64,000 nt of DNA from Escherichia coli (GTDB taxonomy: Bacteria; Pseudomonadota; Gammaproteobacteria; Enterobacterales; Enterobacteriaceae), in NCBI RefSeq assembly GCF_003018235.1, contig NZ_CP027437.1. The stretch is one strand, 5' to 3'. Positions 3,207 through 47,445 of this stretch are shown in pieces. Each line of letters begins with the position of its first letter. The first letter of the stretch is position 1. A program made the position numbers and the translations under genes. The notes beneath the pieces are model-generated. The model ran no database searches, was not told where the DNA came from, and saw nothing but the letters and a program-made list of their open reading frames with translations.

Positions 3207-4256
3207 GTGCGGGTATTACTTCGACCTGTTCTGGTACCGGAACTCGGGCTGGTGGTCGTTAAGCCGGGCCGTGAATCCATGCCGGTATTCCACAATACCC
3301 GGGTACTGGTGGAGCCGGAACCGAAAAGCATGCGTAATCTGCCGTCCGGGGTCGTTCCTGCCGTTCGCCAGCCGCTGGTGGAAGACAAAACATTGCTGCC
3401 GTTTTTCAGTAACGCACGGGTAATTCGTGCTGCTGGTGGTGCTGGTGCATTGTCTGACTGGCTGTTGCGCCATATTAAATCCTGCCAGTGGCCACACGGC
3501 GATTATCATCACAGTGAAACCGTTATTCACCGTTATGGTACCGGCGCAATGGTGTTGTGCTGGCACTGCGACAACCAGCTGCGTGACCAGACATCCGAAT
3601 CACTCGAGCAACTTGCTCATCAAAACCTGTCAGCATGGATGATTGACGTCATCGGTCACGCAATAAGCGGTACGCAGGAGCGTGAATTATCTCTGGCTGA
3701 ATTATCCTGGTGGGCGGTCCGCAATCAGGTGGCGGACGCGCTACCGGAAGCGGTATTACGTCGCTCGCTGGGATTACCAGCGGAAAAAAACTGCTCGGTG
3801 TACCGCGAAAGCGACATCGTACCGGGAGAGCAGACCGCCACCAGCATATTGAAACAGCGCACAAAAAATCTTGCACCGTTGCCTCACGCCCACCAGCAAC
3901 AAAACCCATCACAGGAAAAGACGGTGGTAAGCATCACCGTTGATCCAGAGTCTCCGGAATCTTTCATGAAGCTGCCTAAACGTCACCGTTGGGTTAAGGA
4001 GAAATACACACGCTGGGTTAAGACACAGCCGTGTGCTTGCTGCGGTATGCCAGCCGACGATCCGCATCATCTGATTGGTCACGGGCAGGGCGGAATGGGA
4101 ACCAAAGCACATGATCTCTTTGTGTTGCCTTTGTGCAGAAAGCATCACGACGAGCTGCATGCGAATACCGTGGCATTTGAAGAGAAGTATGGCTCCCAGC
4201 TGGAGCTGATATTTCGTTTTATCGATCGTGCGCTGGCAATAGGCGTACTGGCGTAA
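3207..4256 (+). CDS. ydfU: DUF968 protein YdfU with C-terminal HNH-like Cys/His cluster
   Basis: 349-aa ORF with GTG start and SD ggagg; C-terminus CACCGMPADDPHHLIGHGQGG...CRKHHDELH. Confidence 0.85.
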   Translation: MRVLLRPVLVPELGLVVVKPGRESMPVFHNTRVLVEPEPKSMRNLPSGVVPAVRQPLVEDKTLLPFFSNARVIRAAGGAGALSDWLLRHIKSCQWPHGDYHHSETVIHRYGTGAMVLCWHCDNQLRDQTSESLEQLAHQNLSAWMIDVIGHAISGTQERELSLAELSWWAVRNQVADALPEAVLRRSLGLPAEKNCSVYRESDIVPGEQTATSILKQRTKNLAPLPHAHQQQNPSQEKTVVSITVDPESPESFMKLPKRHRWVKEKYTRWVKTQPCACCGMPADDPHHLIGHGQGGMGTKAHDLFVLPLCRKHHDELHANTVAFEEKYGSQLELIFRFIDRALAIGVLA

Positions 4257-4269
4257 GTGGAGAACGAGC

Positions 4270-5022
4270 ATGAACCTTGAAGCTTTACCAAAATATTACT
4301 CCCCAAAATCTCCAAAATTGAGTGATGACGCACCGGCGACAGGCTCGGGTGGTTTAACAATAACAGATGTGATGGCTGCGCAGGGGATGGTGCAGTCGAA
4401 AGCTCCGCTTGGTTTTGCCTTATTCCTGGCAAAAGTTGGTGTTGAGGATCCTCAGTTTGCGATTGAAGGTCTGCTCAATTACGCGATGGCAATGGATAAT
4501 CCGACATTGAACAAATTGAGTGAAGAAATCCGGTTACAGATCATCCCTTACCTTGTGAATTTTGCCTTTGCTGATTATTCCAGGTCTGCGGCAAGTAAGG
4601 CTCGCTGTGAGTATTGTGCTGGTACTGGATTTCATAATGTATTGCGCGAAGTGGTGAAACACTCCAGAAGTGGGGAATCTGTTATCAAGGAAGAGTGGGT
4701 GAAGGAACTATGTCAGCATTGCCATGGTAAGGGAGAAGTCAGCACAGCGTGCAGAGGGTGTAAGGGGAAAGGTATTGTCCTGGATGAAAAAAGAACCCGG
4801 CTTCATAGCACGCCTGTTTATAAGGTTTGTGGGCGTTGCAATGGAAACCGGTTTAGTCGTTTACCAACGACACTGGCGCGGTGTCATGTCCAGAAGCTGG
4901 TACCAGACCTGACGGATTATCAGTGGTACAAAGGATATGCAGATGTCATTGATAAACTGGTTACAAAGTGCTGGCAGGAAGAAGCATATGCTGAGGTGCA
5001 ATTAAGAAAAGTGACGAGATAA
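4270..5022 (+). CDS. quuQ: Late-gene antiterminator Q
   Basis: 250-aa ORF with Cys-rich zinc-finger region (CEYCAGTG...CQHCHGKGE...CRGCKGKG...CGRCNGN); sits upstream of the lysis genes. Confidence 0.85.
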   Translation: MNLEALPKYYSPKSPKLSDDAPATGSGGLTITDVMAAQGMVQSKAPLGFALFLAKVGVEDPQFAIEGLLNYAMAMDNPTLNKLSEEIRLQIIPYLVNFAFADYSRSAASKARCEYCAGTGFHNVLREVVKHSRSGESVIKEEWVKELCQHCHGKGEVSTACRGCKGKGIVLDEKRTRLHSTPVYKVCGRCNGNRFSRLPTTLARCHVQKLVPDLTDYQWYKGYADVIDKLVTKCWQEEAYAEVQLRKVTR

Positions 5023-5192
5023 ATGATTTTCACCGAACGATGGCGACATAACGATTGTATTTTCTAAGGAAACGTGCAAAGAGTTTTCCAATGATGAGCC
5101 TTATATGCATACCTGTGGAAAATATCAATAAGCCGCGCAGAGTGGTTTTTTTGTGGACATAAACTTTGTGCAGAACGGTAACCATTATGGTT

Positions 5193-5229
5193 GCCGTGAA
5201 TGCAGTTTTTTTACATTGCTGGCTTTTTT
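5193..5229 (+). terminator. tR'-like intrinsic terminator about 190 nt downstream of Q
   Basis: Imperfect hairpin gccgtgaatg...cattgctggc followed by tttttt; matches the lambda PR'/tR' layout. Confidence 0.4.
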
Positions 5230-6099
5230 AGATTTGTGTTAGTTATTGATATTAACAAGAAGGGGAAAAGACATGCTAAAACGGCAGGATATGAAGGAAA
5301 CGGTTATGCGTGAATGTTCCAGTGTGATTAACCATATCATCTGGAGAAGCCATCCTGATGCAGGGAAGAGGTAACAGTAACGCGCATCAATCAGGCTGCA
5401 AATAAATGGCTTACGCCGGAAATCTGGCTATCGATGTATTACCGGTTTGTTACCCATGAAGAAAATTAAGGTGATAACGAAACTGATTTTATAGGTGTCT
5501 TGTCAGAGTGTTGCGATGAAACTTGTGTTGGCAGTGCAGGGAAAACAGTAGGATGAAAATTATAAATTGCTTTAAATGAGCTTGATTTTCCTCATGTTAT
5601 GAGATATTTGTCTTATATTGCTGGTTAATTATGAAAATTTTTGTAAATCTACAGCAATAAAATCCATATTAATTAAAGCACTAGATGCGTTTCTGATTTG
5701 TGCATGAAACATACATATCATAATGATTAATTGCATCTATAATTACAGATACAGCATTGTGCTATTAAAAAACTGGAGTCCCCATGAATACATTATATGT
5801 AAGTGATTCAAATGAAAAATCTCATGACAGGAATAAAAACAATGAGGATAGTAAGGGTAAGGATAATAAAAAAGACAACCGGAAAGAGTAAATAATCTTT
5901 CCTGCATGAAAATACTAGGGTGGAATATGTCAGAACATCCAGATTTTGATGACCGTAAGCCTGATGATGAGCCCGTTGAGCGTCCTGATGAGGGGCAACC
6001 ATTGAACCCTTTTTCACCGGATGATAAAAGAGATCCTATTATTTAGATATAGCAGAATATAGCCGTTTAAAGTAGGTTGTGTTTTGTTGCTATCCTTAA

Positions 6100-6126
6100 A
6101 CCACCTCCACAGGAGGTGGTTTTTTA
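6100..6126 (+). terminator. Strong Rho-independent terminator
   Basis: Perfect 9-bp stem accacctcc / ggaggtggt with 3-nt loop, then ttttt. Confidence 0.8.
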
Positions 6127-6182
6127 CTAATGGAACATTAATTGGCAGATGTGATTGTGTACGACTTATGGGAGGCTTAAGA

Positions 6183-6368
6183 TTATTTTCTGCCAATAAT
6201 AAAACCAAGCGTTAACCCTATGCTTAGAGCAACCACCACGCTAGTCAGTGGATAATTTCTAAATTTATCTTTAACGTTTTCTTTGCCTCCCTGCAAAGCA
6301 TCGTCAGCACATGATGCATATTTTTTGACAGTATTAACTATTTCGTTTTCAGATTGATTTGAAGTCAT
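6183..6368 (-). CDS. Small tail-anchored membrane protein, DUF883 (YqjD/ElaB/YgaM)-like; 61 aa from the first ATG (ORF open to 6467 with a TTG)
   Basis: C-terminal NYPLTSVVVALSIGLTLGFIIGRK resembles the DUF883 membrane anchor; weak SD agga. Confidence 0.35.
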   Translation of the reverse strand: MTSNQSENEIVNTVKKYASCADDALQGGKENVKDKFRNYPLTSVVVALSIGLTLGFIIGRK

Positions 6369-6823
6369 GTTTGAAGTCCTGATGTTAAGTGGTTTTTTAA
6401 TTATAGCAGATATGCTTTCAATGATAGGGCGGAGAGTTGTTATTGAGGTGATACTATGACCACTCAATCAATATTACATAAAATGACGTTTACTCCTGTT
6501 TGGCACAGTAGCAGAATTTTGCTTCTGCTACTGAAGTCGCTTTAGCACTAGAATATGCAGATGGATAAAGCAGTTCAGCGTATGTACTGCGTCATGCATA
6601 TCGGTCTTGCAGATATGACGAGAAGGGGAGACAAGGTGTGTGTAATGTAGAAGTCTTTAAAGTGCTGTCTGGGATAACTCTATGCTGAAGTGCAATTGAT
6701 AAAAGTAACACGATAAAGGTTTTTCAATGAAGATGGTAACGTGATGCTTGCATTTTTCAAAAAATATGGATAAAATTTTTTCAAAGATGGGCTTTGTATA
6801 CCCGACGTTAAGAAAAAGTAGAA

Positions 6824-6852
6824 AACCCGCTGATGAGCGGGTTTTGTGCTTT
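6824..6852. terminator. Bidirectional intrinsic terminator (3' end of the cspF transcript on the - strand)
   Basis: Hairpin cccgct-gatg-agcggg flanked by T-rich tracts on both strands. Confidence 0.55.
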
Positions 6853-7137
6853 AAATGGGGCAATGGTAATGTTGAATCTCATCCCGGGACTCATGTCTGT
6901 TAACTTATTATTTAGCTGGTGACTTGGTTATTTGCCTGATGTTTAAAATGTTTTCTTCCAGTACAATGTCCCTAAACACAATGAGTCTGCTTATTATATT
7001 ATTAGCAGAGCTATTACGGCCAAAGTACAGCATAAGCTTTTAAAGCCAATCAACCAGTCATCAAGACAGACGGGGTTATTCATAAAAACTCTCCATGTGT
7101 GATCCGATGGGGCCTGAAATTAAAGCTTTAATATAGC

Positions 7138-7350
7138 TCATGAAAGGTAAACATTGGCAGCTGAAGGGCCACGCAGACCATTTATCCGGCAAAATTCCAC
7201 GCGTAATCCGGTGGTAATTTCTTCTGCATCGCGGAGATTGAGCGCTGAAACATGAAGCTGGACATCGATACGACCATCGGATGGGGTGATAAGACCCTTG
7301 CCGCTTTTGCCGTCAAAGGTTTTGACAATTCCTGTCATTTTACGGGACAA
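7138..7350 (-). CDS. cspF: Cold-shock-like protein CspF
   Basis: 70-aa translation [70 protein letters not shown]. Confidence 0.9.
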
Positions 7351-7650
7351 AAAAATTCCTTAATACTGATAACTTGGCGCACTATACACACGTTCCTGAA
7401 GAAAGCTATAGTTTTTTGATGGGGTTGAAGATGGCTGGATGTCTAAAATAAACATTGCTTCATATGTTCAACTATGCGTTAATGATTGCGTCGGTTTGAA
7501 GAACAGACGATATACGAAGTAGTTTACTAAAGCAGTTCTCATTTCAGGTGTTATTCACTTATTCCTTCTTTGAGTCTCTCCAATTAAGTACGAAGTCGTT
7601 TCTGTTATGCAAACCATTTATGCCGAAAGGCTCAAGTTAAGGAATGTAGA

Positions 7651-7866
7651 ATGTCAAATAAAATGACTGGTTTAGTAAAATGGTTTAACGCTGATAAAGG
7701 TTTCGGCTTTATTTCTCCTGTTGATGGTAGTAAAGATGTGTTTGTGCATTTTTCTGCGATTCAGAATGATAATTATCGAACCTTATTTGAAGGTCAAAAG
7801 GTTACCTTCTCTATAGAGAGTGGTGCTAAAGGTCCTGCAGCAGTAAATGTCATCATTACTGATTAA
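7651..7866 (+). CDS. cspB: Cold-shock-like protein CspB
   Basis: 71-aa translation [26 protein letters not shown]... with the CspA-family RNP motifs. Confidence 0.9.
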
Positions 7867-10175: not shown

Positions 10176-10535
10176 GGTAATATTAAATCGGAACATTTAC
10201 ATCGCGGAATGTAAAATTTAAATAAAAAGGACTCTTCCATGAGCCAAAATTCCTGAAATCTTAAGGGTAAGAAAAGGTCTTAATCAGAATGACACGTTTT
10301 ATTAATAAATAAAGCTATTCTTTCATTGCTGTGTTTTTCTTTACAAAAGTAATCCTTGCTATGGGTGGTTAATCATGCGTTAATGGTGTTCTGGTTTGTT
10401 ACAAATTTATCTGAAGCAGTCATTGTTATAATTTTATTATTTGTACCTCTTGGGATTTCCTTGTTGGTTTTTCTCTCTGATATTTTTTTTCGGACCATTC
10501 TGCCCAAGGGCTAATTTCTTCAAAAGGTAATAATT

Positions 10536-10748
10536 ATGTCTAACAAAATGACTGGTTTAGTGAAATGGTTTAACCCTGAAAAAGGTTTTGGTTTCATCAC
10601 GCCGAAAGATGGCAGCAAAGATGTGTTTGTCCATTTCTCAGCAATTCAGAGCAACGATTTCAAAACATTAACTGAGAATCAGGAAGTTGAATTTGGTATT
10701 GAGAACGGACCTAAAGGTCCTGCCGCTGTTCATGTAGTGGCGCTTTGA
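10536..10748 (+). CDS. cspI: Cold-shock-like protein CspI
   Basis: 70-aa translation [26 protein letters not shown]... Confidence 0.9.
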
Positions 10749-10952
10749 GGTAGACAATATTACAAACCATATTCACTTTAGATGCCCGTGTTGTCATGGT
10801 TCCCAGTATAGAACATCATCTTTTGATGTTTCTGACATGAATCCTTTCGGGGCAAAATGTATCTTTTGTAAATCAATGATGATTACATTTGATAATATTT
10901 CACAATACTTAAATGCCAGCCGTCTGTCGTTGGATTTAAAAAAGTGAAAATG

Positions 10953-22371: not shown

Positions 22372-22709
22372 CGCGGGAAATGCAGTTTGTCATGCGGCTT
22401 GCCCGGGAGTTCCGGCGGGCAGACTGGCGGCGGATGCTGTCGGAAATGTCGGCCACTGAGCTTGGTGAGTGGGGCGATTATTTCCGGATGCAGAGCTTCA
22501 GTGATGTGTGGATGGATGCGCAGTTTGCCTCGCTGAAGGCATTGATCGTGATAATGGTGTCCGGCAGCAGTGATGCTGCGGTGGCTGATTTCAGCCTTTT
22601 ACCGGAAGAGAACGGGATACCGGAGCGAACGGACGAAGAACTGATGCATCTTGGGGAAGGTATTTCCGGAGGTGTGCGTTATGGAGCAGATAGCCAACCT
22701 GGTCATTGA
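21985..22709 (+). CDS. Tail assembly chaperone G-T, made by a -1 programmed frameshift near the end of G
   Basis: The T frame (22347-22709) is -1 relative to G and overlaps the last 8 codons of G; candidate slip site ggaaaag at 22359-22365. Confidence 0.6.
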
Positions 22710-25700
22710 TTTGGGGATTGATGCGGCAGAGTTTAAAAATGAAATTCCCCGTATCAAAAACCTTCTGAATGGTGCAGCCAGCGATGCAGAACGGTCTTCT
22801 GCCCGTATGCAGCGTTTTATGGAGCGTCAGACTCAGGCCGCCCGGCAGACAACGCAGGCAGCTTCTTCGGCTGCAACAGCCGCATCCGTCCATGCGCAGA
22901 CGGTGGAGAAGAACGCACAGGCTCATGAACGCATGGCCCGCGAGGTGGAGAAAACCCGCCAGCGCATGGAGGCACTGAGCCAGAAAATGCGCGAGGAACA
23001 GGCGCAGGCCATGGCTCTGGCGGAGGCTCAGGATAAAGCGGCTGCTGCGTTTTATCGTCAGATTGACAGTGTGAAACAGGCCAGTGCGGGGCTGCAGGAA
23101 TTACAGCGTATTCAGCAGCAGATCCGACAGGCCAGAAACAGTGGCGGGATTGGTCAGCAGGATTATCTGGCGCTGATTTCTGAGGTTACTGCGAAAACCC
23201 GTGTTCTTACACAGGCTGAGGAAGAGGCTACCCGACAGAAAGTGGCGTTTATCCGTCAGCTTAAAGAGCAGGCAACCCGCCTGAATCTTTCATCTTCTGA
23301 GTTGCTTCGTGCTAAGGCAGCCCAGCTGGGGGTAAGCAGTGCTGCAGAAGTGTATATCCGCAAAATGGAGCATGCAGGAAAAGCCACGCATTCGCTGGGT
23401 CTGAAAAGTGCATCAGCCCGCCAGGAGATAGGCGTTCTGATAGGTGAACTGGCCCGCGGCAATTTAGGGGCGCTGAGGGGATCCGGGATAACGCTGGCTA
23501 ACCGTGCCGGATGGATAGACACACTGATGTCACCGAAAGGCATGATGCTTGGCGGGGTTATTGGCGGTATTGCCGCGGCCGTCTATGGTCTGGGTAAAGC
23601 CTGGTATGACGGTCAGAAGGAGGGGGAAGAATTTAACCGCCAGTTGTCGCTGACGGGGCATTATGCCGGAGTCACTGCCGGGCAGCTGTGGACGCTCAGT
23701 CGTGCTATTTCCGGGAATGGTATCACGCAACATGCTGCAGCCGGTGCGCTGGCTCAGGTGGTGGGGAGTGGTGCATTTCGTGGAAACGATATCGGTATGG
23801 TGGCGAGAGCTGCCGCACAGATGGAGCGATCGGTTGGCCAGTCGGTCAGCGATACCATAAATCAGTTTAAGCGGCTGAAGGATGATCCTGTAAATGCCGC
23901 GAAGGCTCTGGACAATGAGCTGCATTTTCTTACTGCCACTCAGCTTGAGCAGATACGCGTCCTTGGGGAGCAGGGGCGGTCCAGTGATGCTGCACGGATA
24001 GCCATGTCTGCACTGGCAGAGGAAACCGGTCGGCGTACTGCGGATATTGATAATAACCTCAATGCGCTTGGCAGTACGCTGAAGTATCTGTCTGATTTGT
24101 GGAGTCGTTTCTGGGATGCGGCCATGAATATTGGTCGTGAAGACTCGCTGGATGAACAGATTGCCGCTTTACAGGAGAAAGTGTCGCGGGCGAAAAGACT
24201 CCCCTGGACGGCATCATCTTCTCAGGTTGAATACGATCAGCAGCGTCTTAACGATCTTCAGGAGAAAAAACGCCAGAAGGATTTGCAGGATGCAAAAGAG
24301 CAGGCAGAGCGGAATTATCAGGAGCAACAGAAACGCCGTAATGCTGAAAATGCTGCACTGAACCGGATGAATGAAACGGAAGCAGCACGACATCAGCGTG
24401 AAATTGCGCGTATTAATGCCATGCAGTACGCCGATCAGGCTGTCAGGGATGCGGCGATACAACGTGAAAATGAACGTTACGAGAAAGCCCTGGCATCCGG
24501 TAAGAAAAAAACACGCGAAACCCGTAATGATGAGGCCACCCGGTTATTGCTGCAGTACAGTCAGCAACAGGCACAGGTGGAAGGACAGATTGCTGCTGCC
24601 AGACAGTCAGTAGGCATTGCCACGGAAAGGATGACAGAAGCGCATAAACAGCTTCTGGCTCTGCAGCAGCGCATCAGCGACCTAGACGGGAAAAAACTTA
24701 CGGCAGATGAAAAGAGTGTGCTGGCCCGTAAAGATGAACTGATTCAGGCACTGACGCTGCTGGATGTAAAACAGCAGGAGCTTCAGAAACAGACGGCACT
24801 CAACGAGCTGAAGAAAAAAACAATTCAGCTGACCAGTCAACTGGCTGAAGAAGAGCGCGCTCAGCGTCAGCAACATGACCTGGATATCGCCACGGTGGGT
24901 ATGGGTGATCAGCAGCGACAGCGATATCAGGTACAACTGAGTCTTCGCCAGAAATACCAGCAACAGCTGGAGCAGTTGAGGCGGGATAGTGAGCAGAAAG
25001 GGACATATAACACGGATGACTACAGAAAGGCCGAGCAGGCGCTGACGGAGAGCCTGAACCGACAACTGAATGAGAATCGCCGTTACTGGCAACAGCTTGA
25101 AGTTGTGCAGGGTAACTGGAAAAACGGAGTCCTGCGTGCATTTCAGGATTTTACCGTGGATGCAGATAATACGGCAGAAACAGCAGAACAGGTGTTCTCG
25201 TCAGCCTTCAGCAACATGGGAAATGGCCTGGCAACTTTTGTCACTACCGGCAAACTCAATTTCAAATCCTTCACCTCTTCTGTGCTGTCAGATATGGCGA
25301 AAATCCTGGCGCAGGCAACCATGATGAAATCGATAAAAGGGATTGGCAGTGTACTGGGATTTGATCTCAGCAGCCTTTCCCTGAATGCCAATGGGGGGAT
25401 TTATCAGTCTGCTGATTTGAGTCGTTACAGTGGCACGGTGGTTAACCGTCCGACGTTTTTTGCTTTTGCAAAAGGCGCGGGTGTGATGGGGGAAGCGGGA
25501 CCTGAAGCCATTCTGCCATTGCGTCGTGGTGCTGACGGTAAGCTGGGGGTTGTGGCGGATATTGGGGGTTCAGGTATGGCGATGTTTTCCCCGCAGTACA
25601 ACATCGAGATCAATAACGATGGCACGAACGGGCAGATAGGTCCGGCTGCCCTGAAGGCGGTTTATGACCTCGGGAAAAAAGCGGCAGCGGACTTTATGCA

Positions 25701-25746
25701 ACAGCAGGCCCGTGATGGTGGTCGGTTAAGTGGAGCATATCGGTAA
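22681..25746 (+). CDS. Tail tape measure protein (gpH-like), 1021 aa
   Basis: Long coiled-coil-rich ORF; SD ggagg 8 nt upstream; start overlaps the end of T. Confidence 0.9.
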   Translation: MEQIANLVIDLGIDAAEFKNEIPRIKNLLNGAASDAERSSARMQRFMERQTQAARQTTQAASSAATAASVHAQTVEKNAQAHERMAREVEKTRQRMEALSQKMREEQAQAMALAEAQDKAAAAFYRQIDSVKQASAGLQELQRIQQQIRQARNSGGIGQQDYLALISEVTAKTRVLTQAEEEATRQKVAFIRQLKEQATRLNLSSSELLRAKAAQLGVSSAAEVYIRKMEHAGKATHSLGLKSASARQEIGVLIGELARGNLGALRGSGITLANRAGWIDTLMSPKGMMLGGVIGGIAAAVYGLGKAWYDGQKEGEEFNRQLSLTGHYAGVTAGQLWTLSRAISGNGITQHAAAGALAQVVGSGAFRGNDIGMVARAAAQMERSVGQSVSDTINQFKRLKDDPVNAAKALDNELHFLTATQLEQIRVLGEQGRSSDAARIAMSALAEETGRRTADIDNNLNALGSTLKYLSDLWSRFWDAAMNIGREDSLDEQIAALQEKVSRAKRLPWTASSSQVEYDQQRLNDLQEKKRQKDLQDAKEQAERNYQEQQKRRNAENAALNRMNETEAARHQREIARINAMQYADQAVRDAAIQRENERYEKALASGKKKTRETRNDEATRLLLQYSQQQAQVEGQIAAARQSVGIATERMTEAHKQLLALQQRISDLDGKKLTADEKSVLARKDELIQALTLLDVKQQELQKQTALNELKKKTIQLTSQLAEEERAQRQQHDLDIATVGMGDQQRQRYQVQLSLRQKYQQQLEQLRRDSEQKGTYNTDDYRKAEQALTESLNRQLNENRRYWQQLEVVQGNWKNGVLRAFQDFTVDADNTAETAEQVFSSAFSNMGNGLATFVTTGKLNFKSFTSSVLSDMAKILAQATMMKSIKGIGSVLGFDLSSLSLNANGGIYQSADLSRYSGTVVNRPTFFAFAKGAGVMGEAGPEAILPLRRGADGKLGVVADIGGSGMAMFSPQYNIEINNDGTNGQIGPAALKAVYDLGKKAAADFMQQQARDGGRLSGAYR

Positions 25747-35677: not shown

Positions 35678-36252
35678 TGGCATTCAGAATGAGTGAACAA
35701 GCACGGACCATAAAAATTTATAACCTGCTGGCCGGAACTAATGAATTTATTGGTGAAGGTGACGCATATATTCCTCCTCATACAGGTCTGCCTGCAAACA
35801 GTACCGATATTGCACCGCCAGATATTCCGGCTGGCTTTGTGGCTGTTTTCAACAGTGATGAGGCATCGTGGCATCTCGTTGAAGACCATCGGGGAAAAAC
35901 GGTCTATGACGTGGCTTCCGGCGACGCGTTATTTATTTCTGAACTCGGCTCATTACCGGAAAATGTCACCTGGTTATCCCCGGAAGGGGAGTTTCAGAAG
36001 TGGAACGGTACAGCCTGGGTGAAGGATACGGAAGCAGAAAAACTGTTCCGGATCCGGGAGGCGGAAGAAACAAAAAACAGCCTGATGCAGGTAGCCAGTG
36101 AGCATATAGCGCCGCTTCAGGATGCTGTGGATCTGGAGATCGCAACGGAGGAAGAAACCTTGTTGCTGGAAGCCTGGAAAAAGTATCGGGTGTTGCTGAA
36201 CCGTGTTGATACATCAACTGCACCGGATATTGAATGGCCAGCCCTACCGTAG
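35677..36252 (+). CDS. tfa: Tail fibre assembly protein Tfa
   Basis: 191 aa; start overlaps stf stop (ATAATGG). Confidence 0.85.
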
Positions 36253-47142: not shown

Positions 47143-47176
47143 CATTCATTGAGAAAACTGATGCTACTGTGTCAAC

Positions 47177-47274
47177 GATCCGTTATCAGTGCAGGAAAAT
47201 GCCTGTTAGCGTAAAAGCAAAACACAAATCTATCCATGCAAGCATTCACCGCCGGTTTACTGGCGGTTTTTTTT
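47177..47274 (+). ncRNA. mgrR: Putative PhoP-activated Hfq-binding sRNA MgrR (5' end approximate)
   Basis: PhoP box upstream; intrinsic terminator accgcc-ggtttact-ggcggt followed by tttttttt at 47247-47274; between dgcZ and mgtS. Confidence 0.45.
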
Positions 47275-47349
47275 CGCCGTCATAAAAATCAGGCCCCTTG
47301 TACACAGTTGTAACAAGGGGCCGGTTAGGTGAGGGATTATCTCCGTTCA

Positions 47350-47445
47350 TTAGTCATCCCATTTGTGGCTGAAATACGCGGCCAGAAAACCAGAAAATAA
47401 AATTATTCCCAGTACGGCCATAAAAACATTCATATTACCCAGCAT
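47350..47445 (-). CDS. mgtS: Small membrane protein MgtS (YneM), 31 aa
   Basis: MLGNMNVFMAVLGIILFSGFLAAYFSHKWDD; SD ggagg 7 nt upstream; hairpin terminator at 47281-47322. Confidence 0.8.
   Translation of the reverse strand: MLGNMNVFMAVLGIILFSGFLAAYFSHKWDD

Follow-up and report, generated by a model that had tools for sequence, protein, structure and literature searches.

A short minus-strand open reading frame (ORF) in the Escherichia coli DNA analysed here (a stretch of 64,000 nucleotides of contig NZ_CP027437.1, hereafter the window, that represents a Qin-like lambdoid prophage) is most probably a shadow ORF of a purine-rich tract on the opposite strand, within a young mosaic cassette restricted to Escherichia. 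We infer that this frame, here called the minus ORF, is not translated, and we find it quite unlikely that it is a functional gene of any kind. The first-pass annotation of this DNA had described a 64-codon ORF starting at the ATG at 6002, with a weak Shine-Dalgarno (SD) sequence and the hydrophobic end LLFPVVFFIILTLTILIVFIPVMRFFI, and ORF listing and translation confirmed this description: AAGGG stands 4 nucleotides (nt) 5' of the ATG and its duplex with the anti-SD has an energy of -4.5 kcal/mol. The same annotation considered the ORF to be fully antisense to two acidic plus-strand ORFs, which we call ORF1 and ORF2. Its extent does fall entirely inside their joint span (5784-5891 and 5927-6046, respectively), but 35 nt of it (5892-5926) face the spacer between them and not coding sequence, and only ORF2 is acidic (13 D/E vs 5 K/R), ORF1 being a mixed-charge peptide rich in K, N, D and E (8 acidic and 9 basic residues). 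The predicted minus peptide consists of a 37-residue His/Gln-rich head, in which residue 32 is L and not S in 37 of the 38 copies aligned below, and of a hydrophobic helix at the extreme C-terminus. This stretch of 27 residues reaches a Kyte-Doolittle value of 3.08 over 19 residues, as compared to 3.07 for the HokD toxin encoded in the same window. In size and hydrophobicity (64 amino acids with a predicted membrane helix) the peptide thus resembles a type I toxin, a class below about 60-70 amino acids, and this likeness is explained by the opposite strand.

The evidence for this lies in the codons themselves. The minus frame runs in exact register with ORF1, its first codon positions pairing with the third positions of the plus frame, and a codon table of both strands showed that all residues of the tail are complements of K, N, D, E, R, S or G codons (for example, from ORF1 to tail, AAA to TTT, AAT to ATT, GAT to ATC, GAC to GTC, GAA to TTC and AAG to CTT). 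The minus frame has no stops because the plus strand presents no TTA, CTA or TCA codon until the TCA at 5808-5810, which is the minus stop. It is known that the hydropathy of complementary codons is opposite, a property described as the anti-complementarity of the genetic code (Blalock and Smith 1984, reviewed in PMC2206014). Complements such as TTT, ATT, ATC, GTC, TTC and CTT bring no stops and spell F, I, V and L, and the minus frame is probably open and hydrophobic solely through what the opposite strand contains. The plus-strand segment over ORF1 (5808-5891) is 75% purine and 51% A, and positions 5816-5895 are the most purine-rich 80 nt of the whole window (0.76, vs a mean of 0.52 and a standard deviation of 0.06). 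The first-pass annotation had invoked AT richness as the cause, which is imprecise; the driver is a strand-asymmetric richness in purines and A (76% purine, the window maximum).

The strength of this relation was apparent when the locus was recoded. In a by-product test, in which both plus-strand peptides were fixed and their codons redrawn synonymously in 5000 trials, the minus frame kept a length of 64 open codons or more in 79% of the trials and carried a hydrophobic segment of Kyte-Doolittle 2.5 or more in 85%. In the converse test, with the minus peptide fixed, both plus frames remained open in 37%. The in-register complementarity and the recoding result mean that the hydrophobic stretch cannot be treated as independent of the opposite strand. 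The first-pass annotation had itself cautioned that hydrophobic antisense frames can lack function and that only one strand was likely to be coding; this caution was well placed, and the mirror relation that justifies it is seen here directly, in the complements of K, N, D and E codons and in the outcome of the recodings. The length of the minus ORF is no more than expected by chance, since ORFs of at least 64 and at least 69 amino acids arose in 28% and 21%, respectively, of dinucleotide shuffles of 5600-6200. As for hydrophobicity, only 4 of the 229 ORFs of 50-100 amino acids in the window reached a Kyte-Doolittle value of 2.5 over 19 residues, so that this property is uncommon when unconditioned, yet close to automatic given the composition of the plus strand.

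The window provided an internal control. An 82-amino-acid antisense ORF at 24214-24462 (minus strand), with a Kyte-Doolittle value of 3.09, lies inside a 1031-amino-acid tape-measure gene (22651-25746), where it faces the sequence QEKKRQKDLQDAKEQAERNYQEQQKRR in a coiled-coil-like stretch rich in K, E, Q and R. This ORF illustrates the mirror effect clearly. Like other shadow ORFs, the minus ORF is in register antisense to K, N, D and E codons, lacks stops and has an inverted hydropathy; its openness and composition were predictable from the opposite strand alone, and independent coding evidence, in the form of homologues, families or gene calls, was not found. It differs from them in that its sense partner is the 35-codon ORF1, which is not a proven gene, and the purine-rich tract itself may therefore be the primary feature.

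Similarity searches yielded no relatives. The minus ORF matched only itself, both when 1.84 billion representative proteins were scanned in full with HMMER and in a word-index search of 5.8 billion protein clusters, and the latter disclosed no relative below about 97% identity for ORF2, the minus ORF or a neighbouring 61-amino-acid gene on the minus strand. The same was true of all three ORFs and this neighbour in tblastn searches of phages, and distant-mode BLASTN against E. coli genomes, phages and plasmids retrieved nothing but copies at roughly 97% identity and above, along with flanking pieces that were unrelated. None of the three ORFs matched Pfam, PHROG or NCBIfam (E up to 10) or PADLOC (E up to 1), and Rfam revealed neither an antitoxin RNA nor any other family over the ORFs at 5700-6130 (E up to 1 over 4900-7700; gathering thresholds for the whole window). 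As a positive control, the same scans recovered HokD (2180-2392) as HOK_GEF (3e-23) and sok (2068-2242) with 115 bits. A literature search with phage names and peptide strings returned nothing relevant. With regard to gene calling, the window allele and the common allele of the minus ORF were both absent from 15 billion predicted proteins, and the ORF had been called solely as three rare variants on 7 contigs in all, while other pipelines had called the plus-strand ORFs on at least 1000 contigs. The RefSeq annotation made with the PGAP pipeline of NCBI contains nothing on either strand of 5700-6130.

Expression signals pointed in the same direction, if only modestly. Consensus and weight-matrix scans, which are not proof of absence, found no sigma-70-like site with a start at 6097-6018 on the minus strand, that is, from an intrinsic terminator hairpin (6098-6125) to the minus start, and near the ORFs there were weak sites at most on either strand. 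The SD energies were -5.9 (ORF1), -7.3 (ORF2), -4.5 (minus ORF) and -4.0 kcal/mol (annotated 61-amino-acid gene), those of the plus-strand ORFs matching Q, cspB and cspF of the same window in strength. The hairpin lies 52 nt past the ORF2 stop and is followed on the plus side by T6; on the minus side, where it lies 58 nt past the stop of the 61-amino-acid gene and upstream of the minus ORF, only TTTAAGG follows. A codon-usage likelihood, from a crude model trained on only 41 long ORFs, placed the plus over the minus strand by 9 bits, the minus frame being 3.6 bits under and the plus frames 5.5 bits over the non-coding model. Both strands folded somewhat better than shuffled sequences (z = -3.1 and -2.3), but these scores come mostly from the shared hairpin and do not discriminate between strands. 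The intrinsic signals favour the plus strand modestly, or no coding at all, and any translation at the locus would be that of the two small plus-strand ORFs, with their better SDs and the strong terminator that follows them; that the stretch as a whole is a non-coding leftover is about as likely. The first-pass annotation had called the coding strand ambiguous, a point on which the comparison of copies at least 98% identical gives no decision.

For this comparison we aligned 38 copies from complete genomes, phages, viral and metagenome contigs and assembly look-ups (exact-pattern scans yielded 6 viral contigs and 2 metagenome contigs), all of them at least 98% identical. There were 11 variable sites in 5784-6046. 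Considering that the comparison is shallow, the minus ORF (from ATG 6002) displayed 6 non-synonymous changes and 1 synonymous, L>P and R>S in the tail among them, and the plus-strand ORFs 5 and 2, respectively, plus one frameshift. The density of single-nucleotide polymorphisms (SNPs) was about 0.042 per nt over the ORFs and thus not below that of the flanking non-coding DNA (0.040 and 0.028). SNPs 6007 and 6009 convert AAAAAGGGTTCA into AAAAATGATTCA, so that the minus SD is lost in 2 of the 38 copies. The variation thus appears neutral, with no constraint visible on either strand in what is an underpowered comparison. ORF2 was unbroken in all 38 copies, and ORF1 was frameshifted by a 2-bp deletion in strain 04-00955, indel variants (P0042 and P0043) being also present among the predicted proteins. 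A further cluster member, P0015, is an unrelated 292-amino-acid permease, and we discarded it as a clustering artefact. A 46-amino-acid form of ORF2, from an ATG at 5906, exists in the window because of SNP 5908 A>G, which none of the other 37 aligned copies carries (they read ATA); the 46-amino-acid protein is nevertheless recorded on 22 contigs. In all, four SNPs of the cassette (5764, 5908, 6393 and 6472, within 5160-6650) are found in the window and in none of the 37 other copies.

Several observations weigh against a shadow ORF. None of the 38 copies has a broken minus ORF, and the SD of this ORF is at least as good as the one of the 61-amino-acid gene. The U-tract of the hairpin in the minus direction is short (UUUAAGG), and read-through from the 61-amino-acid gene could therefore reach the minus ORF. 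The codon-usage model is crude and its training set small, and the NCBI pipeline annotates neither strand. The close identity of the copies means that the substitution counts can neither separate selection from neutrality nor settle the coding strand. Moreover, a single hydrophobic helix makes up many of the small proteins validated in bacteria, whereas the peptides of ORF1 and ORF2 look disordered.

Two further readings concern the plus strand. The first one, that 5784-6046 is untranslated on both strands and represents a non-coding leftover of the mosaic cassette that is kept only through its youth, has in our opinion a little less than an even chance. It agrees with the decay of the flanks, where a ren fragment (5374-5542) and a fragment of a 202-amino-acid gene (6456-6638) contain in-frame stops, with the position of the locus between duplicated Q-end segments, with a variation that bears no sign of constraint and includes frameshifts, and with the fact that the three ORFs have no homologues and were not annotated by PGAP. 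On the other hand, two consecutive ATG-started ORFs with good SDs and a strong terminator after them show more order than one would expect of junk, and the codon likelihood is tilted slightly towards coding on the plus strand.

The second one considers ORF1 and ORF2 as genuine small phage proteins, expressed from a rightward transcript or from a weak local promoter and ended at the hairpin. It is compatible with the minus ORF as a shadow, and we regard it as possible but less likely than not. The ATG starts with SDs level with those of Q, cspB and cspF, the strong plus-strand terminator past the ORF2 stop, the calls on at least 1000 contigs, the annotation of both ORFs in the records of phages HannyBb and PhiR63_1, the integrity of ORF2 and the 5.5 bits over the non-coding model are all in keeping with it. 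However, there is no homologue below 97% identity and no family match, ORF1 is frameshifted in 04-00955, the indel variants P0042 and P0043 exist, the SNP density is not below that of the flanks and the ratio of non-synonymous to synonymous changes is 5:2, PGAP annotated neither ORF, and only weak promoter-like sites were found. ORF1 and ORF2, both of which look disordered, are thus possible but unproven small proteins.

Other readings give the minus ORF a product. According to one of them, it is the second cistron of the transcript of the 61-amino-acid gene, reached by read-through of a terminator that is weak in the minus direction. Both are on the same strand, with the start of the minus ORF 81 nt downstream of the hairpin, the U-tract on that side is just UUU, both products would have a C-terminal anchor and the 61-amino-acid gene has an extended -10 promoter-like site. 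But an 11-bp hairpin of -18 kcal/mol separates the two ORFs, the gene callers that accept the 61-amino-acid gene omit the minus ORF, and the arguments from the mirror image and the lack of homologues hold equally, so that we consider this reading very improbable. Much the same has to be said of the broader proposal that the minus ORF is a translated, anchored membrane peptide repressed by a complementary ORF1/ORF2 transcript, either as a type I-like pair with no family or as an overlapping gene pair recently born in a phage cassette, which seems to us scarcely likely. Were the minus ORF translated, it would represent a very young antisense gene, born de novo within a prophage cassette.

The least credible reading, and hardly to be entertained, is the one closest to the first-pass annotation, which had seen in the minus ORF a membrane or toxin-like peptide and in the two strands a type I-like pair: a C-terminally anchored membrane toxin with the complementary plus-strand transcript as its antisense antitoxin. 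The hydrophobicity level with that of HokD, the ATG with AAGGG upstream, the integrity of the ORF in the 38 copies and a plus strand that has a terminator and is probably transcribed would suit it. That interpretation found no support in the analysis. The mirror relation to the plus strand accounts in full for the hydrophobic stretch; the scans that recovered hokD and sok found no toxin family (Hok/Gef, Ldr, TisB, Ibs, ShoB or others) in Pfam or NCBIfam and no antitoxin RNA in Rfam; there is no promoter-like site from the hairpin to the start; SNPs 6007 and 6009 destroy the SD in 2 of the 38 copies, and L>P and R>S affect the tail; no relatives exist among 1.84 billion proteins; and the antitoxin would be an RNA of about 400 nt with two ORFs, which is unlike the known type I antitoxins.

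The comparison with a true pair can be made within the window, since hokD/sok, the hokD/sokD pair of Qin, lies 3.5 kb from the minus ORF. Like hokD/sokD, the minus ORF is small, encodes one strongly hydrophobic helix, belongs to a prophage and has a potential overlapping antisense transcript. Unlike hokD/sokD, it belongs to no sequence or RNA family and has no promoter-like site, its helix is at the extreme C-terminus after the His/Gln-rich head, its antisense partner would be a long, ORF-carrying RNA, and it is not conserved outside one young cassette. A true type I toxin and an artefact inside the tape-measure gene in one and the same window make a direct comparison possible, and we draw from it the caution that a strongly hydrophobic small ORF opposite in-register, purine-rich charged codons is no evidence of a membrane toxin.

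Table 1. Features of the window in and around the cassette that contains the minus ORF (SD energies and hairpin stability in kcal/mol).
Feature	Position	Strand	Details
hokD/sok (Qin hokD/sokD), genuine type I pair	2068-2392	hokD, +	hokD 2180-2392; Pfam HOK_GEF, Rfam sok
ydfU	3207-4256
Q antiterminator gene	4270-5022		intact
Copy 1 of Q 3' end/late promoter/terminator segment	4965-5160	+	contiguous with Q; -10 reads AAAGAG
ren fragment, lambdoid (3' part), decayed	5374-5542	+	42-56% amino acid identity; in-frame stops, frame change; left part of cassette
ORF1	5784-5891	+	35 amino acids, MNTLYVSDSNEKSHDRNKNNEDSKGKDNKKDNRKE; GGAG 6 nt 5' of ATG, SD -5.9
Minus ORF	5808-6017	-	69 codons from GTG 6017, 64 from ATG 6002; stop TGA 5808-5810; from ORF listing and translation
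Hydrophobic tail of minus ORF	5811-5891	-	LLFPVVFFIILTLTILIVFIPVMRFFI; in-register complement of ORF1 codons 10-36
ORF2	5927-6046	+	39 amino acids, acidic, proline-rich, MSEHPDFDDRKPDDEPVERPDEGQPLNPFSPDDKRDPII; SD -7.3
Intrinsic terminator hairpin	6098-6125	both	AAACCACCTCC-ACA-GGAGGTGGTTT; 11 bp, about -18
61-amino-acid ORF	6183-6368	-	C-terminal hydrophobic anchor; WP_000203370.1, phrog_11629; converges on hairpin terminator
Promoter-like site of 61-amino-acid gene	6400-6427	-	extended -10 TGCTATAAT at 6408-6400; consensus match only
5' fragment of 202-amino-acid hypothetical phage gene, decayed	6456-6638	+	in-frame stops; right part of cassette
Copy 2 of Q 3' end/late promoter/terminator segment	6659-6848	+	TTGCAT-17-TAAAAT 6748-6776; hairpin 6822-6845
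cspF	7138-7350	-
cspB	7651-7866

The cassette, of about 1.5 kb, is a mosaic inserted between Q and a probable working late promoter, in a prophage whose other landmarks include ynfU and the essQ holin (Table 1). The Q-to-cspF interval measures 2.1 kb here, whereas in phages PhiR42_1 and 2H10 it spans only about 0.4 kb, and the additional DNA is bracketed by two copies of the Q 3' end segment, a diverged direct duplication with 77% identity over a 73-nt repeat. Copy 2 has retained the promoter and hairpin in the form seen in PhiR42_1 and mEp460 and probably acts as the late promoter region; a weak Rfam match to isrK (E 0.88) also falls there, at 6753-6847. The duplication, in which a good promoter is kept by the downstream copy only, suggests that a recombination between two phages brought in the cassette, which now separates Q from its target promoter. 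The two decayed fragments have the orientation of the plus strand, the direction of rightward transcription in the phage; about 240 nt without ORFs separate the ren fragment from ORF1, and the other fragment (43% amino acid identity) corresponds to a gene on record for an E. coli plasmid.

Of 5426 complete E. coli genomes, 39 carried the cassette (identity of 99% or above), and it was also found in phages HannyBb and PhiR63_1 and in E. marmotae. To judge from these collections, the locus is an Escherichia-only cassette, at 98% identity or above. As is the case with the morons and mosaic cassettes located from Q to the lysis genes of lambdoid prophages (cspB, cspF, ynfS and ynfU of Qin), it is an AT-rich insert beside Q that brings a terminator of its own and one or more genes with their own promoter, and it is patchy, occurring in some Qin-like prophages and phages but missing from PhiR42_1 and 2H10, among others. 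In contrast to them, it has Q on one side and, on the other, a second copy of the late promoter in a better state of preservation; its boundaries are formed by the diverged Q 3' end duplication, and it contains decayed fragments of ren and of another gene.

The 61-amino-acid gene is the sole annotated gene of the cassette and its anchor is glycine-zipper-like. The protein is very widespread in E. coli assemblies (4816 index blocks of the assembly collection), but the searches disclosed no relative under 98% identity. It is named DUF883 by one source, a designation of tail-anchored proteins of the ElaB/YqjD/YgaM type, but its match to Pfam DUF883_C was below the gathering score (E = 0.14, 12.3 bits vs a cut-off of 27). 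Together with the two plus-strand ORFs, this tail-anchored gene makes a set of orphan candidates of modest interest for surveys of small proteins.

In 15 other E. coli genomes the terminator hairpin with its flanks (6082-6128) recurs, 91.5% identical, at an unrelated locus (L040, 1501-1547) where it stands between an N-6 DNA methylase gene and a nucleotidyltransferase/ThiF-family pair, as if it were a shared mobile piece. We tried this shared hairpin as a lead to relatives of the cassette locus and abandoned it, as it led only to the unrelated methylase/nucleotidyltransferase locus. Elsewhere in the window, Rfam matches at the gathering level were obtained for STnc560 (an Hfq-binding small RNA; 47143-47356, 280 bits) and IS009 (36020-36218, 222 bits). 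Finally, a very hydrophobic ORF of 52 amino acids (Kyte-Doolittle 3.18) lies in a pyrimidine-rich stretch at 10356-10514 on the plus strand, overlapping a match to the cspA-type 5' untranslated region thermoregulator (10390-10775) upstream of a cspI-like gene (10536-10748), and is probably another composition-driven ORF.

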